Below are positions 170 through 11,869 of a stretch of 64,000 bases of DNA, piece after piece. The stretch covers positions 2,108,001-2,172,000 of the forward strand of contig CAKKNE010000001.1 in assembly GCA_918797485.1 (NCBI GenBank), in the 5' to 3' direction. The stretch comes from Pelagomonas calceolata. Its lineage: Eukaryota. A model generated the notes under the pieces. It was not told the DNA's origin, ran no database searches, and was given only the letters and a program-made list of their open reading frames with translations. The position numbers and the translations under genes were made by a program. Positions within the stretch are counted from its first letter, which is position 1, and each line of letters begins with the position of its first letter.

Positions 170-984
170 TTACTCTTCCGCGGATTTAAGCTCGACCTCG
201 ATGGCCTCGCCGACCTTGCGGAACCGCTCCTGGACCATCGCGACGAGCAGGTCCGCGCGGCCGCCCAGCTTCGCGTAGGTGCCGTGGGCCTGGATCGTGA
301 CCTTCTTGACCTGCGCATAAACCGACCAGTGAGCGGACCGGTCCACGAGACGAAGACGTCGCACCGAAATTGATTTTGGGACGCGGCGTGTTCGTGCCCC
401 GAAAGCGACGGCCATCGCGACAATCTCCCACGCCGCCCACACGGGCGGCGGGAGCAATTTGGCCTCCGCCTCCGAGAGCGGAGTCGATACCCAACCTGCG
501 CCGCAATATGAACGCGCGCACGGGCGAAAATTACACAGCCGCCACCAGCCCCGGTCCTCATCTCGTCACCGTCCGGCAGGCAGCCGTCGACGACGGCAAT
601 AATATGCCGCGGGAACACCGGCGCCTGGCACCGCAGTTCTAGCGCCCGCTTCGCCTCCTCGAAAAACTTGGTCTCGGCCGTCGCAAAATCCGGTTTCGCC
701 CGGTCGGCGACCCAAACCTCCAGGGCCAGAGGCTCTTCGCAGGTGGCGAGGACGCACGAGGCGTCTGCTTTCACGCCTGGATACGCGCCGAGCAATACGG
801 CTCGTTGCGGCACGAAGTGGACGGCTTTGCGGCCTGGGACAATGTCACAGTCACTCCTCCAAAAGTGTCGTGTACCGTTGCCGCCTTCCGTCCAGCGGTA
901 ACCGCCTTGCTCGTAGACGTTCTGAGGAGGGCCGTTCGGCACGCGTGCGGTCGTGAAGGCGACGGGAGCCGTCTGGTTTTGCAT
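170..984 (-). CDS. Hypothetical protein, probably 2 exons (intron acceptor near 496)
   Basis: MQNQTAPV... frame switches to ...WVSTPLSEAEAKLLPPPVWAAW...KSAEE* after a GCGCAG acceptor; no recognisable domain. Confidence 0.4.
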
Positions 985-1282
985 GCCCCAACCAAGCAAT
1001 GCAAGGCAAATGGATACAGGAAACCCGCGGCGCGGAACGTTAGGAGACGCGTGCAGGCTGTCGCAGGCGCTCCCGACGCTTCGCAAACGCCGCGAGGCCA
1101 ACGCCAATCGCGCGGTATTTTTGGTCGGACGCGGCGACTTGGCTCTATATATATTCGAATTCTGCATTACTCGGGACTTCTAACCGGCGCACGAGGCGGC
1201 TGCATTATGGTATCGTAGTTCTGTGAATTAGCGCCATGCGAGGAATAACGGCCGCGACGCCGCGCGACGACTCCTGGTCCGT

Positions 1283-3319
1283 CTACAAGACGCGCAGCTC
1301 GTCCGCCCGGACAGTCTCCCTGAAGCAGCCCTTGTCGAAGAAGACGATGAACACGCCCGGCGTGTCCTCGGCCTCGACGACGCCCTCGCGCCCGTACTTC
1401 ATCCAGACGACGCGGTCGCCGACTGCAGCCTCTCGCTGGAAGCGCCGCTTCGGCGGCGGCGGCGCGTCGACGACCCTAGGCCGCTTGTCTCCGCGGCTCG
1501 ACCGGCGCGCCGGCTTGGCCGACGCGAAGAAGGCGTCCAGCTGAGCGTGGCTGGGCGACGGCCGCCGCGCGATGGGCGGCCGCCGCGCGCCCGCCGCAAA
1601 CCGCCGCGCTGTTCGGGGCGCGGCGACCGCGTCCTTCTGCTTCTGCTCCTCGTGGGCCTTGGCGTCGGCGCGGTCGATGTCGCGCACGAGCTCTTCAGCC
1701 CGCTCCGCGCCCAGGCCGAGCGGCCCCAACAAGGCCACGAGCGACTTCACGGCGTCGCCGTCGTGCGGACCCGCCGACGTTATCATCCTTTGCCGCGCCT
1801 TGAGCCGGGCCGTGGCGTCGCGCGAGGCGATGGGCCGCTCGCCCTGCGACGGCGCCGGCGTCGGCGCCGGGGCGTCGCCCGACTCCGTGCGCGGCGCTTC
1901 GGGCGACACCACGTCCACGTCCATGGGCTGCGTCGCGTCCGGCGCCGGCGCCGGCGCCGGCCCCGCAGCGGCCATCGCCGCCGCCGCGATCTTGTTGAGG
2001 ACGCGCGTCGCGGGCGCGAACAGTTTGGGGCCCGTTTCTCTGCTGAAGCCCTCGGCCTTCTTCGTCGGCTTGGGCAGCACGTCGGCCGGGAGGAAGGACG
2101 CCAGGGCGGCCGCGAGGGCGTCGTAGGCCTCGCCCAGGCCTTTCATGCCATCCGCGTCACTAGCACGTGCTCGCGCCTTGGCGTCGTCCAGATGCGCGTA
2201 TGACCGCGGTTCGCGCCGCGCCGCCGGCGCGAACACGCCGGCGAGCAGACCACCAGCGAGTTTCGCCCTTAAGACCTCCGTCGCGAGCTGAACCAATCCT
2301 TCGCGCGTCGGTTTGCGCCGTCCGTTGGTAGACGCCGCTGCCGTGACAGCGCCATCCCCTAGCCCGCAGCACTCCGTCGCGACGGACACGAGCGCGGCGC
2401 GGAACGCCGCCTCGTCCGTCTTCGCCACGTCGCGCTTGTGGCCGTCGCGCTGTGGCCGCTCCGAATCATACTCGACCTTGCGCAAGCGCTGCAATTCCGT
2501 CGCCCACTCCGGCGTCTCGCACGCGCTCGACGCGTTCTTCACGCAGAACTGCGAGGGGACGACGCGTTGACGCACGCGCGTGATGCTCAGGGACGCAGGC
2601 GCACGCACCTCTACCGCTTGCTTCTCGTTCATCCCTCCAGAAGTCTGGAGGGCCTCGCAGGTCGAATCCAACGCGGCGGCCTTGTAGCCGAGTGGACCGG
2701 CCGGTTCCGCAAACTCGGGCCGGATGCCGGGGCAGGTCCATGGCCCGCTCCACGAGGACGTCTTCTTCTCGTCCTTCGCCGCCGACGGCTCTTTTTTTGG
2801 GGCCTCCGGGGCGGCGGGCTCCTGCTTCACCGCCGCCGGCTCTATTTTGAGGGCCTCCGGGGCGGTCGCCGGGGCGGGCGCCGGGGCGGCCGCCGGGGCG
2901 GGCGCCGGGGCGGCCGCCGGGGCGGGCGCGACAGCCTTTTCGCCGAGGCCCTCGGGCTTCGCGTCGGCCACGCCCTTCTTCGACGCCTTGCTACCGCCGC
3001 CTCGCGGCCCGAACGAGGCGTGGACCGTCGAATCTAATTGCTGGACCGCGACGTCTGCTCCTCCGGGCCCGAGACTCGCCATGATGCCTTGCACGACGTC
3101 GGCGCCATCGGCGGCGTTCAATAAACGGACGGTGCCGTCGGCGACGAGCGGTATGCCCGGCTGCTTCTCGGCGGACTTCGCAGCAGCGCCGGAAAGGCAA
3201 ATCGCAGCTACTCCGGATACGAGGCGGCTCGGCGACGCTGCAGCGATGCCGGCGGCCAACGGCTGCGCGTACGCCGCGCAGCGGCGCGTCAACGTGATGA
3301 AGGTCAGGGCGCGTAGCAT
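1283..3319 (-). CDS. Hypothetical Ala/Pro-rich protein with C-terminal SH3/Tudor-like barrel
   Basis: Long uninterrupted ORF; APAPAA repeats; C-terminus AVGDRVVWMKYGREGVVEAEDTPGVFIVFFDKG. Confidence 0.55.
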   Translation of the reverse strand: MLRALTFITLTRRCAAYAQPLAAGIAAASPSRLVSGVAAICLSGAAAKSAEKQPGIPLVADGTVRLLNAADGADVVQGIMASLGPGGADVAVQQLDSTVHASFGPRGGGSKASKKGVADAKPEGLGEKAVAPAPAAAPAPAPAAAPAPAPATAPEALKIEPAAVKQEPAAPEAPKKEPSAAKDEKKTSSWSGPWTCPGIRPEFAEPAGPLGYKAAALDSTCEALQTSGGMNEKQAVEVRAPASLSITRVRQRVVPSQFCVKNASSACETPEWATELQRLRKVEYDSERPQRDGHKRDVAKTDEAAFRAALVSVATECCGLGDGAVTAAASTNGRRKPTREGLVQLATEVLRAKLAGGLLAGVFAPAARREPRSYAHLDDAKARARASDADGMKGLGEAYDALAAALASFLPADVLPKPTKKAEGFSRETGPKLFAPATRVLNKIAAAAMAAAGPAPAPAPDATQPMDVDVVSPEAPRTESGDAPAPTPAPSQGERPIASRDATARLKARQRMITSAGPHDGDAVKSLVALLGPLGLGAERAEELVRDIDRADAKAHEEQKQKDAVAAPRTARRFAAGARRPPIARRPSPSHAQLDAFFASAKPARRSSRGDKRPRVVDAPPPPKRRFQREAAVGDRVVWMKYGREGVVEAEDTPGVFIVFFDKGCFRETVRADELRVL

Positions 3320-8464: not shown

Positions 8465-8500
8465 TAGAGGGTCAAATCGAGAATCACGGGTTTTTTCTAT
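8465..8500 (+). promoter_or_regulatory. Candidate upstream Pol III element for tRNA-Pro(CGG)
   Basis: AGGGTCAAATCGAGAATCACGGGTTTTTTCTAT, closely similar to the element upstream of the permuted tRNA (11044-11080, -). Confidence 0.5.
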
Positions 8501-8565
8501 TGGGTATTCAGATGACACTGATTTTTTCGAATCATCTCTCCCAGCGCTCGTCGTCGCGAGCGCTG

Positions 8566-8661
8566 GGGAGCATGGTCTAGTGGCATGATTCATCCTTGGT
8601 AACAATGGAATCACTGCGCTTCGGGTGCGCGAGGTCGTGGGTTCGATTCCCGCTGTTCCCC
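8566..8661 (+). tRNA. tRNA-Pro(CGG) with 24-nt non-canonical intron at 27/28 (8592-8615), copy 1
   Basis: Acceptor GGGAGCA/TGTTCCC+C73; D arm GTCTAGTGGCATGAT; anticodon arm CGCGC-TTCGGGT-GCGCG after splicing; T arm GTGGG-TTCGATT-CCCGC; oligo-T downstream. Confidence 0.9.
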
Positions 8662-9002
8662 TTTGTTTTTTTTGCTTTTTTTGGCCTCTCCGCGCTCTAT
8701 CCTACGGGTTCCGACCGGAATCCGGCTCAACGGGCACAACGGGCGTCCGGCGTACACACGACGCGTAACGGGCGTGGTCGTGGTGGGCGTGGAAGCGGGG
8801 CTAGCTAGAACTCAGCGCTCGGGCGACGCTCGGCCGACTTCGGACGGCGGGCTAGCTAGTCCTCAGCCCTCTCGCAACCGACACATGCTTCGTGACGATG
8901 GAGCGTCCGGCCGGCGTCGGGCGCGACTGTTTTCTATTGGGTATTCAGATGACACTGATTTTTTCGAATCATCTCTCCCAGCGCTCGTCGTCGCGAGCGC
9001 TG

Positions 9003-9098
9003 GGGAGCATGGTCTAGTGGCATGATTCATCCTTGGTAACAATGGAATCACTGCGCTTCGGGTGCGCGAGGTCGTGGGTTCGATTCCCGCTGTTCCCC
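9003..9098 (+). tRNA. tRNA-Pro(CGG) with 27/28 intron, copy 2
   Basis: Identical to copy 1. Confidence 0.88.
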
Positions 9099-9363
9099 TT
9101 TGTTTTTTTGGCTTTTTTTGGCCTCTCCGCGCTCTATCCTACGGGTTCCGACCGGAATCCGGCTCAACGGGCACAACGGGCGTCCGGCGTACACACGACG
9201 CGTAACGGGCGTGGTCGTAGTCCTCAGCCCTCTCGCAACCGACACATGCTTCGTGACGATGGAGCGTCCGGCCGGCGTCGGGCGCGACTGTTTTCTATTG
9301 GGTATTCAGATGACACTGATTTTTTCGAATCATCTCTCCCAGCGCTCGTCGTCGCGAGCGCTG

Positions 9364-9459
9364 GGGAGCATGGTCTAGTGGCATGATTCATCCTTGGTAA
9401 CAATGGAATCACTGCGCTTCGGGTGCGCGAGGTCGTGGGTTCGATTCCCGCTGTTCCCC
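9364..9459 (+). tRNA. tRNA-Pro(CGG) with 27/28 intron, copy 3
   Basis: Identical to copy 1. Confidence 0.88.
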
Positions 9460-9794
9460 TTTGTTTTTTTTGCTTTTTTTGGCCTCTCCGCGCTCTATCC
9501 TACGGGTTCCGACCGGAATCCGGCTCAACGGGCACAACGGGCGTCCGGCGTACACACGACGCGTAACGGGCGTGGTCGTGGTGGGCGTGGAAGCGGGGCT
9601 AGCTAGAACTCAGCGCTCGGGCGACGCTCGGCCGACTTCGGACGGCGGGCTAGCTAGTCCTCAGCCCTCTCGCAACCGACACATGCTTCGTGACGATGGA
9701 GCGTCCGGCCGGCGTCGGGCGCGCCGGCTGCCAGCGTGGAACGCCAAATGATCGTCGAGCGGGGCGTGTTCAGAAAAGAAATACAACAGCGAAA

Positions 9795-10712
9795 TTAACG
9801 CACCCCATTCTCACGCCGTCCAGCAGCCACAAAAAGCGCCACCGCAAACGTCCCCAGCGCTGCGACTGACGCGACGGGCCGCGAGAACGCCGCGGGGTAG
9901 AACTCGCGGAGGCAATTGCGCTCCACGACGACCTTCGCGCCGACGGCGACCCAGTGCGCCGCGGCCGCGCGCGCGACACCGCGGCGGAGCACTTTTTGAT
10001 CAGCTGTCGCGAGCGAGAGCGCCGCCGCCGCGTATAGCACTGAAAAAGCGCCAAAGGCCCGCGAGAGACGCCGGCCCAGCATCGTCGGCAGCGTCGCGAG
10101 CGGGAACGGCGCCACCGCCGCGACGAGCGCCCAGCCCGCGAAGGCGAGCGCGACGGCCCGCCAGACCGTCGACTGCGAACTCCGCTTCGTGTTCGGCGAC
10201 GACACGTAGGCCGCGCCGCAGAGCAGTGCCGCGCTGCCGTGGACAGCGGCAGCAACTGCCCGCAGCGGCGCGGGGTAGGTGATGGCCGCGGAGTGCGCCA
10301 TGTGCGCGAGGCCGGGCGCGCGCGCCGCCGCCGTGGCCGTGAAACGCGGCGCGAAGACGACGGCAGCACAGAGCCAGGCCGACGCCGCGGCGAGGCCGAG
10401 CTGCACCGTGCGGTCTTCGGGAGCGGCCTCGAACGACGCGGTCAGCAGCGGTAGCGGCGTCAACGCTTGCAGGATGGACAGGCGCGCGTGCGCCGCAGGC
10501 AGCGCGAGCGTCGGATGCCGCGACAGCGCCGTGACGGCGCAGGCGGACCAGGCCGCGACGGAGGCCGCCGAGGCGAGGCGGTAGGCATTGCTCTGAGTGG
10601 GTGCAGCGGTGCTTGCGGCGCTCCGGCGGGTCGATCGCTGGCGTAGGCGCGTCGGCGGCGTCGAGAGGGCTTGTGCGTGCCCGGATAGGAGCAATACGAT
10701 TGCGCGTCGCAT
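9795..10712 (-). CDS. Probable plastid-targeted multi-pass membrane protein
   Basis: MRRAIVLLLSGHAQA-L + Ser/Arg-rich transit-like stretch; several hydrophobic helices. Confidence 0.6.
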   Translation of the reverse strand: MRRAIVLLLSGHAQALSTPPTRLRQRSTRRSAASTAAPTQSNAYRLASAASVAAWSACAVTALSRHPTLALPAAHARLSILQALTPLPLLTASFEAAPEDRTVQLGLAAASAWLCAAVVFAPRFTATAAARAPGLAHMAHSAAITYPAPLRAVAAAVHGSAALLCGAAYVSSPNTKRSSQSTVWRAVALAFAGWALVAAVAPFPLATLPTMLGRRLSRAFGAFSVLYAAAALSLATADQKVLRRGVARAAAAHWVAVGAKVVVERNCLREFYPAAFSRPVASVAALGTFAVALFVAAGRRENGVR

Positions 10713-10800
10713 GGCTGTGCGGTGTTCGAGGCGGACGGGAGGTTTGGGCGGCTCGGACCCCCCAAAATGCCAAAGGGGGGGGTCAAAGGACCAAAAAAAC

Positions 10801-10808
10801 AAAAAAAA
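10801..10808 (-). terminator. Pol III oligo-T terminator of the permuted tRNA
   Basis: T8 run on the minus strand about 11 nt after the 5'-half exon. Confidence 0.7.
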
Positions 10809-10819
10809 GAAGCACACAA

Positions 10820-10984
10820 TACCACTAGACCACTGAGCCGGAAACCGGGCTGACCACTGAGTCTTTAGAACTCATCAGCGGGGAATTGAACCCCGGACCT
10901 CATGCGTATACACATAGAGTATAGCTCGCAATTTAGTGAAAAACTCCCTAAGATTCCTCCCGGTTTTACACGGGTCGAGAATCA
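10820..10984 (-). tRNA. Circularly permuted tRNA-Pro(AGG) with four introns
   Basis: Exons in transcript order 10984-10976, 10952-10946, 10930-10925, 10900-10876, 10851-10847, 7-nt linker, then 5' part 10839-10820; rejoined = 72-nt GGCTCAGTGGTCTAGTGGTATGATTCTCGCTTAGGGTGCGAGAGGTCCGGGGTTCAATTCCCCGCTGAGCCC; BHB-like motif at every junction. Confidence 0.88.
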
Positions 10985-11043
10985 AGGAGGTGTGCGCCTG
11001 CTTCGAAAGCTACTTTCCGCGAAACCGCGGTATGTGGATCGGC

Positions 11044-11080
11044 ATAGAAGAAAACCCGTGATTCGAGAATTGACCCTTTA
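11044..11080 (-). promoter_or_regulatory. Candidate upstream Pol III element for the permuted tRNA
   Basis: TAAAGGGTCAATTCTCGAATCACGGGTTTTCTTCTAT, ending 60 nt before the first exon; matches 8465-8500. Confidence 0.5.
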
Positions 11081-11152
11081 TGCCACTCAGGGTAAGTGGA
11101 GCTATCTCCATCAACTAATGCCCGCAAACCGCCGCCGGCAACGCCAAAAACC

Positions 11153-11869
11153 ATGAGCGCTGCGAATTCACAGCCACGGCCATCGATGCGGACCGTAGTC
11201 CAAGGCATCATCGACAGCCAGCAAAGCCGGGCGCTTGTCCAGCCGGCGGCGGGGCGCGCGCCACTGCTCCTACGCGTCAAAGGTACGCTGATGTGCGAGG
11301 AATACGACGAGCGACACGAGCTGCGCGTCATGAACTGCGCCGGCGGGATGCAAGCGGCGGAGTCCTTCGACGAGTACATGCAGGTGGTCGTGGGCGAGAT
11401 AGTCGCGCTACGGGATGCGGTACTCATGTTCTTCCCGCCCGACCCAGCGGAGAGTGAAGGTAATAACGATCATGTCCTCCTGAGCTTGTGGCACGAAGGC
11501 CTCCGGTCTGTACTCGCGCACCTGGGCGTCCCGTGGCCGCTGGGAGAGGCACTGGAGTGCGTCGACATCCGGGACTTCGACGGGCTCGACGACGATCGCG
11601 ACGCCGTGGCGGACATCGACACTTGGCAAATCCTGCATGACGCGATGGACCGGCTCACGGAGCGGTGCATGGGCAACACGATCGACACCTACAAGCTACT
11701 GGGCGCGCCGCACGAGGCCGACGGGACTGTGGAGACGCATCAAGACGGCCTGTGCTGGGCCGTGGCGGTTGAGGGCAAATTTGAACAGGACTTTGGCAAG
11801 GAATGCGACCCGGAGTACGAACCCCCTCTGCCGGTCTGGGGCCGGGGCTCCCTAGGTCAAAACTACTGA
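11153..11869 (+). CDS. Hypothetical acidic protein
   Basis: Intronless ORF with GC3-biased codons. Confidence 0.6.
   Translation: MSAANSQPRPSMRTVVQGIIDSQQSRALVQPAAGRAPLLLRVKGTLMCEEYDERHELRVMNCAGGMQAAESFDEYMQVVVGEIVALRDAVLMFFPPDPAESEGNNDHVLLSLWHEGLRSVLAHLGVPWPLGEALECVDIRDFDGLDDDRDAVADIDTWQILHDAMDRLTERCMGNTIDTYKLLGAPHEADGTVETHQDGLCWAVAVEGKFEQDFGKECDPEYEPPLPVWGRGSLGQNY

Follow-up and report, generated by a model that had tools for sequence, protein, structure and literature searches.

Can a transfer RNA (tRNA) that is encoded back to front, and is further broken up by several introns, be read from a single short transcription unit in a stramenopile? The question is raised by a locus in a 64,000-nucleotide (nt) stretch of Pelagomonas calceolata DNA (GenBank assembly GCA_918797485.1, contig CAKKNE010000001.1, positions 2,108,001 to 2,172,000), hereafter the window, to which all coordinates refer. 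On its minus strand, between 10997 and 10812 as measured from leader helix to trailer helix, lies what we consider, with good though not complete confidence, to be a tRNA-Pro(AGG) gene in six circularly permuted pieces, forming one transcription unit and matured much as in Cyanidioschyzon merolae. In the transcript the pieces follow one another in the order nt 22-30, 31-37, 38-43, 44-68, 69-73, linker, and 1-21, so that nt 22-73 (10984-10847) precede nt 1-21 (10839-10820) on one strand and within one unit. A preliminary description, made from the letters alone, had proposed this arrangement, and a script found every piece that it quoted at its place on the minus strand. The pieces therefore stand as described, while the lower end of the unit, which had been drawn at 10820, lies further out, with the trailer helix extending to 10812 and the T8-G-T7 run behind it to 10793. 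The parts of the unit, in transcript order, are as follows.

10985-10997, minus strand: leader, with the helix strand GCGCACA (10997-10991), CCTC (10990-10987) and the bulge bases CT; predicted cut at 10985/10984
10976-10984, minus strand: exon piece nt 22-30, located by script
10953-10975, minus strand: intron 1, 23 nt, at 30/31; helix TTCT:AGGA, bulges CGA/ATC, inner helix CCCG:CGGG
10946-10952, minus strand: exon piece nt 31-37 with the anticodon AGG, located by script
10931-10945, minus strand: intron 2, 15 nt, at the canonical site 37/38; helix TTAG:CTAA, bulges GGA/ATT, with a T5 run inside
10925-10930, minus strand: exon piece nt 38-43, located by script
10901-10924, minus strand: intron 3, 24 nt, at 43/44; helix TGCG:CGCA, bulges AGC/TGA, inner helix TATAC:GTATA
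10876-10900, minus strand: exon piece nt 44-68, comprising the variable loop, the T arm and the first 3 nt of the 3′ acceptor strand
10852-10875, minus strand: intron 4, 24 nt, at 68/69; helix CCGC:GTGG, bulges TGA/TCA, inner helix TGAGT:ACTCA
10847-10851, minus strand: exon piece nt 69-73, AGCC plus the discriminator C, with CCA not encoded
10840-10846, minus strand: linker GGTTTCC, 7 nt, between C73 and nt 1
10820-10839, minus strand: exon piece nt 1-21, comprising the 5′ acceptor strand, the 5′ strand of the D stem and the D loop
10812-10819, minus strand: trailer, consisting of the third bulge base and then TGTGTGC, the pairing partner of the leader strand; predicted cut at 10820/10819

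Behind the trailer (T-TGTGTGC on the minus strand) come TTC and then the T8-G-T7 run.

The joined product and its relatives

When the pieces are joined by their coordinates, they yield 72 nt for which ARAGORN returns tRNA-Pro(agg) with a 7/4/5/5 cloverleaf. Nt 17 is absent in standard numbering, and all 13 invariant positions (U8, A14, G18, G19, A21, U33, G37, G53, U54, U55, C56, A58 and C61) carry the correct base. The earlier assertion that an exact, canonical eukaryotic 72-mer results was thus borne out, and the four intron sites and the permutation junction at 21/22 are also correctly placed in that numbering. The cloverleaf, the invariant bases, the anticodon and the likeness to natural tRNA-Pro are all those of a eukaryotic cytosolic tRNA-Pro(AGG), and the permutation itself has the eukaryal form, in which a short linker stands directly between the discriminator and nt 1 and no CCA is encoded. 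The gene is real and intact, and judged from its sequence it is very probably functional; it is a circularly permuted tRNA gene dependent on bulge-helix-bulge (BHB) motifs, a class already known.

A natural counterpart for the product came from a scan of metagenome contigs for the pattern last exon, linker, 5′ exon. It is an uninterrupted environmental tRNA-Pro(CGG) of another eukaryote, present on two contigs (L001 = L002), and is identical to the joined product at 67 of 72 positions. Compared with it, the upstream trio of small pieces differs at the wobble base alone (21 of 22 positions identical), and the last piece agrees at 5 of 5. The tRNA genes around this counterpart are conventional and closely packed (L001 at about 1145-1473, minus strand; L002 at about 847-1175, plus strand), and all four loci that the pattern retrieved from the metagenome contigs are conventional, non-permuted tRNA genes. 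A looser pattern (T loop, 20-50 nt, 5′ exon) had no match in prokaryote-genome contigs and none in viral contigs.

Eukaryotes decode CCY codons with an AGG tRNA after editing of A34 to inosine. The codons in question, CCC and CCT, make up 70 of the 191 proline codons in seven Pfam-supported open reading frames (ORFs) of the window, the other 4 of the 11 ORFs scanned having been left out for want of a Pfam family.

Standard tools pass over the gene, as had been predicted. ARAGORN reports no tRNA gene at all in the genomic sequence of the window, the permuted gene included, and the Rfam tRNA model does not report it either at its gathering score or at E<=10, nor does it give a partial match at the locus. 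No second copy of the 5′ piece occurs upstream of the gene or elsewhere in the window, and therefore neither a split nor a conventional gene can be read here. A split, trans-spliced tRNA was considered and is further excluded by the confinement of all pieces to 165 nt of one strand, between a single upstream element and a single terminator.

The locus is real DNA. Part of the region 10500-11300 is present in 20 of the 24 sequencing runs listed, and at least half of its sampled words in 14 of the 24; these runs belong to 14 studies that include marine metagenomes, and three of the entries listed may be the source itself. The metatranscriptome runs X15-X20 contain small shares of the region. A contig from another run, X4, reproduces 10809-11060 with zero differences. 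We considered whether the ends of X4 and of a further contig, X11 (10809 and 10992), could be transcript ends and rejected this, as the RNA label of these data was guessed and their contig totals and depth look like those of DNA.

As to the host, the window has 60-70% G+C and long unspliced ORFs, and it encodes a kinesin that shares 97% identity with an environmental protein. Among named organisms, the best relatives of this kinesin come from the pelagophytes Chrysophaeum taylorii (47%) and Pelagophyceae sp. CCMP2097 (52%), with Triparma and Tribonema next in line, which points to a pelagophyte stramenopile and agrees with the apparent stramenopile of the preliminary description.

Splice motifs and proposed maturation

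A single fixed rule describes all the interruptions: a 4-nt helix strand is followed by a bulge of 3 nt, in which the cut comes after the second base, and the other strand mirrors this arrangement. Each of the four introns has a perfect central helix (4/4 pairs in every case) flanked by a 3-nt bulge on either strand, and the cuts are symmetric and fall at the same position, which is what defines a BHB intron and what had been claimed for them. Introns 1, 3 and 4 additionally possess inner helices of 4, 5 and 5 bp, respectively, directly behind the 5′ bulge. An outer helix of 6 bp is formed by intron 1 with the leader, and in intron 2 this role is taken by the anticodon stem, as in ordinary pre-tRNAs. 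At the permutation junction, the strands GTGG and CCTC form 3 of 4 pairs between the bulges TAT and CTT, and the leader and trailer are held together by a 7-bp helix (GCGCACA:TGTGTGC), in keeping with the pairing with one mismatch described earlier; this helix also appears in the unconstrained minimum-free-energy (MFE) fold. All nine helices can be drawn together without using any nucleotide twice.

How easily such an arrangement could arise by chance was assessed by keeping the two long pieces fixed and enumerating, upstream of the T-arm piece, all series of three introns that follow the rule and yield 22 nt, with a cloverleaf filter of at least 3/4 D-stem pairs, 5/5 anticodon-stem pairs, Y32, U33 and R37. 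On the 3′ side, every rule-obeying intron restoring the acceptor stem was enumerated. Proline identity, the inner helices and the leader/trailer helix were ignored. The real sequence has exactly one solution per side, and these are identical to the six-piece arrangement. Among 3000 dinucleotide shuffles of the flanks, an upstream solution was found in 9, a 3′-side solution in 26, and both together in none.

A maturation route can be proposed by analogy with C. merolae and green algae, for which the permuted-tRNA pathway is established (PMC3978253; PMC3728597; these and the other publications cited below were available in part, and statements resting on them refer to the parts available). RNA polymerase III (Pol III) would start downstream of an upstream element shared with a neighbouring tRNA gene (see below) and end at the T8-G-T7 run. 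The leader would then pair with the trailer over 7 bp, presenting a relaxed BHB to the tRNA-splicing endonuclease. Cleavage by this enzyme would fall at 10985/10984 and 10820/10819, whereupon a ligase would connect nt 21 with nt 22 and so close a circle of 165 nt. The central helices of introns 1, 3 and 4 occupy nt 25-28, 38-41 and 63-66, respectively, so that each is mutually exclusive with the mature anticodon stem or T stem; because of this competition, these three introns would be expected to leave first. Intron 2 would leave last, since splicing at its canonical 37/38 site depends on a completed anticodon stem, and this step would produce a 79-nt circle. With only intron 2 remaining, the MFE fold is indeed that of a canonical pre-tRNA, with the anticodon stem, a 4-bp helix and a 3-nt bulge. 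The circle would be opened when RNase P and tRNase Z cut out the 7-nt linker, and after addition of CCA and deamination of A34 to inosine the tRNA would read CCU and CCC. Ordered processing has likewise been described in C. merolae (PMC3728597).

In all, turning the six pieces into one tRNA would take five rounds of cutting and joining guided by BHB motifs, together with two cuts at the ends.

Neighbouring tRNA-Pro(CGG) genes and shared flanks

The permuted gene is accompanied, at a distance of 1.4-2.4 kb and on the opposite strand, by three further tRNA genes lying within 361/437-bp repeats. These genes, and the flanking elements relevant to transcription, are listed below.

8566-8661, 9003-9098 and 9364-9459, plus strand: three tandem tRNA-Pro(CGG) genes, found with Rfam at 33.8 bits each
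10793-10808, minus strand: T8-G-T7 run behind the permuted gene, of the same design (T8-N-T7) as behind the CGG genes
11041-11080, minus strand: upstream element, a 30-nt inverted copy followed by TTCTAT, common to the permuted gene and the first CGG gene

All three CGG genes were missed by ARAGORN when it was run on the window. Each carries a 24-nt BHB intron at the non-canonical position 27/28 (helix TGAT:ATCA, bulges TCA/CTG), cut after the second bulge base by the same helix-bulge rule as in the permuted gene. Removal of the insert leaves a 72-nt tRNA-Pro(cgg) in which ARAGORN places the anticodon as in the AGG product, although the program is lenient on such splice candidates and accepts others of odd length too. 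Since these genes are interrupted at 27/28, the genome needs BHB-guided splicing at non-canonical sites independently of the permuted gene, and the splicing system of broad specificity that the preliminary description had invoked is thereby called for a second time.

Overall, the joined AGG product agrees with the spliced tRNA-Pro(CGG) of the window at 53 of 72 positions. Over nt 22-43 the agreement is 19 of 22, and two of the three differences can be read as a compensatory pair, 28:42. The T-arm motif occurs four times in the 64 kb, namely in the three CGG genes and in the permuted gene, and long double T runs are found in the window only behind these tRNA genes.

Upstream, the 30-nt element is present at 8465-8494 (plus strand) and 11051-11080 (minus strand) as two copies with 87% identity, inverted relative to each other and bracketing the tRNA-Pro cluster. 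Its combination with TTCTAT precedes only the permuted gene and the first CGG gene in the window, and AATCACGGGTTTT has just two occurrences there. An AT-rich box of the TTTTCTAT type stands about 57 nt before the first exon of the permuted gene, and CGG copies 2 and 3 retain just the TTTTCTAT part of the element. From these shared flanks we infer that the upstream element is a Pol III promoter and the T8-G-T7 run a Pol III terminator. An upstream promoter is to be expected in a gene in which the B-box region comes before the A-box region, as has been argued for C. merolae (PMC3978253; PMC3728597). A scan for bacterial promoters and terminators found nothing, the model being the wrong one for a eukaryotic locus.

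Some minor features of the cluster may be mentioned here. A near-perfect 28-nt palindrome (CCCAGCGCTCG..CGAGCGCTGGG) occupies the 5′ leader of each CGG gene (8540-8567, 8977-9004 and 9338-9365, plus strand) and reaches the first bases of the tRNA, which enables the leader to sequester the 5′ acceptor strand. Each CGG gene is followed, at a distance of about 50 nt, by a 20-nt stretch (8710-8729, 9147-9166 and 9508-9527, plus strand) that is 80% similar to the junction of last exon, linker and GGCTCA in the permuted gene and includes a CCGG-N3-CCGG hairpin; these stretches may be left over from a tRNA-Pro junction of earlier date, or may be due to chance in GC-rich DNA. On the other side of the permuted gene, a 305-codon ORF (9795-10712, minus strand) starts on the same strand some 80 nt past the tRNA terminator, which places the tRNA unit within the promoter region of that gene.

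Alternative explanations

Several observations limit the case for a working permuted gene. Introns 3 and 4 have no outer helix and take the relaxed HBh′ form, and the central helix between leader and trailer contains a single U-U mismatch, which is likewise a relaxed BHB. At -67.3 kcal/mol, the MFE fold of the primary transcript favours pairings other than those of the full BHB set, and when four motifs are enforced (leader/trailer and introns 1, 3 and 4) the energy is -42.6 kcal/mol and the leader/trailer central helix is one base off register; folding energies were not used as support, since thermodynamics alone does not favour the full set. The T5 run in intron 2 (10939-10943, minus strand) could end some Pol III transcripts early, and the organism's own terminators, T8 plus T7, suggest that its Pol III needs long T runs. 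No reads fell on 10760-11060 in two poly(A) RNA-seq runs bearing the same organism label, of which about 6% each (12.9 and 9.8 million records) was covered; as such libraries exclude small RNAs and the presence of the organism in the sampled reads is not established, this result speaks neither for nor against a small Pol III product. The pattern scans of metagenome, prokaryote-genome and viral contigs yielded no orthologous locus, and the view is limited to the 64-kb window, so that a conventional Pro(AGG) copy may lie elsewhere. The silent poly(A) libraries, the absence of an orthologue from the scans, the room left for a conventional copy, the internal T5 run and the mismatch at the junction would all suit a dead relic, that is, a former tRNA-Pro scrambled by duplication and insertions and no longer expressed, its work being done by a conventional Pro(AGG) gene elsewhere. 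Such a relic, however, would hardly have kept all 72 nt intact with every invariant base in place, nor would one uniform BHB rule be expected to restore the tRNA at four insertions and the junction alike, as it did in none of the 3000 shuffles, and random decay would not preserve a promoter-like element and a double T-run terminator in the form that they have in the neighbours. We regard this explanation as improbable.

Slightly less credible still is that the locus is expressed and cut at its BHB motifs but yields mainly products other than a decoding tRNA, such as stable circular or intron-derived small RNAs, or that it matures by another route, for instance with the introns leaving first and no circle being formed. 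The processing order given above is itself an inference, which leaves space for such a route, but joining the pieces gives a flawless tRNA whose anticodon is needed, and the 7-nt linker between the discriminator and G1 is just what the published circle pathway requires (PMC3978253). As for a chance arrangement or an assembly artefact, the one circumstance in its favour is the small size of the lesser pieces, only 5-9 nt; yet both sides were never solved together in the shuffles, even though proline identity was not demanded, these same pieces match natural tRNA-Pro almost throughout, and the sequence recurs in runs of many studies and in an identical independent contig, so that this explanation is effectively refuted. 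A single permuted unit maturing in the C. merolae manner is thus the reading that we retain.

Known permuted and intron-bearing tRNA genes

A published list holds 34 permuted genes: 11 from C. merolae, 19 from Ostreococcus and Micromonas, two from the Bigelowiella natans nucleomorph and two from Thermofilum pendens. Seven of the 34 have one extra intron, and the linkers range from 1 to 74 bp (PMC3978253). Auxenochlorella has permuted tRNA genes as well (PMC12633428). Genes of C. merolae contain at most three introns, and four of them are permuted with one intron (PMC3728597); three introns are also the maximum stated for archaea (PMC4033280).

The closest likeness is to C. merolae, with which the pelagophyte gene shares the 3′ part placed before the 5′ part, a short intervening sequence, a BHB at the junction, non-canonical BHB introns and the lack of an encoded CCA, as well as an AT-rich element upstream and a run of T downstream that would replace a usable order of A and B boxes. 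The two nevertheless differ in several respects. C. merolae is a red alga, whereas the host here is a stramenopile; its type I junction lies in the D loop at 20/21, as opposed to 21/22; each of the known intron-bearing permuted genes has one intron, and the pelagophyte gene has four; and maturation, which was shown experimentally in C. merolae, is here predicted from the sequence. The genes of Ostreococcus, Micromonas, the B. natans nucleomorph and Auxenochlorella likewise represent permutation in photosynthetic eukaryotes (PMC3978253; PMC12633428), and a circular intermediate has been shown in green algae. In the prasinophyte, nucleomorph and Auxenochlorella genes, however, the junction is mostly at 37/38, an extra intron is present in one gene only (O. 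lucimarinus), and the available parts of these sources report no non-canonical multi-intron genes of the kind seen in the pelagophyte.

Crenarchaeota of the Thermoproteales, T. pendens among them, resemble the pelagophyte in having strict and relaxed BHB motifs at many positions of the cloverleaf (PMC4033280; PMC3978253), and T. pendens also combines permutation with an intron (PMC3978253). Archaeal permuted genes, though, encode CCA, while the pelagophyte tRNA is of eukaryotic type, with A34 and no CCA. BHB-like introns outside 37/38 are further known from Chondrus crispus and from the nucleomorph of Guillardia theta, both of red-algal ancestry (bioRxiv 10.1101/2021.12.21.473619; PMC13578239). 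In these two the sites are fixed at 20/21 and 58/59, in the D and T loops, and no permuted genes are reported in the parts available, whereas the pelagophyte introns interrupt the anticodon stem, the border of the variable loop and the acceptor stem.

Searches of the full-text literature, whose coverage leaves out most subscription journals, retrieved no report of nuclear permuted tRNA genes in stramenopiles, and the species lists in the available parts of PMC3978253 agree with the statement in the preliminary description that no earlier account was known. Judged on sequence, this would be the first permuted tRNA gene in pelagophytes and the most fragmented tRNA gene described. We lean, if only slightly, towards the wider view that pelagophytes, and perhaps other stramenopiles, apply BHB splicing of the C. 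merolae or archaeal style to their nuclear tRNAs, and that this gene, the most fragmented known, is possibly the only source of a CCU- and CCC-reading tRNA in the cell.

A stramenopile with four introns and a permutation would widen the phylogenetic range of permuted tRNAs, and it would raise the known limit of recognition by a eukaryotic tRNA-splicing endonuclease to include the anticodon stem, the variable-loop border and the acceptor stem. Judging by the many marine metagenome runs that contain the locus, the host appears to be an oceanic picoalga of wide distribution. If the wider view is right, standard tRNA annotation of these abundant ocean algae would be systematically incomplete: tRNA sets built with standard finders would miss the permuted gene, and those built with ARAGORN the three CGG genes too. 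It would also reopen the question of whether such genes came with the red-algal endosymbiont or arose independently, and the origin of disrupted tRNA genes would become testable in a culturable organism.

One further detail concerns intron 4, the last 10 nt of which (CTCAGTGGTC, 10861-10852, minus strand) are repeated exactly by nt 3-12 of the tRNA (10837-10828, minus strand). The two copies of CTCAGTGGTC flank the last exon, the linker and G1-G2, and the duplication may be a footprint of the origin of the intron or of the permutation. Another idea considered was that intron 4 is a tandem copy, since diverged, of the 24-nt segment made up of the last exon, the linker and nt 1-12; the two are identical at 13 of 24 positions, only the last 10 nt matching.

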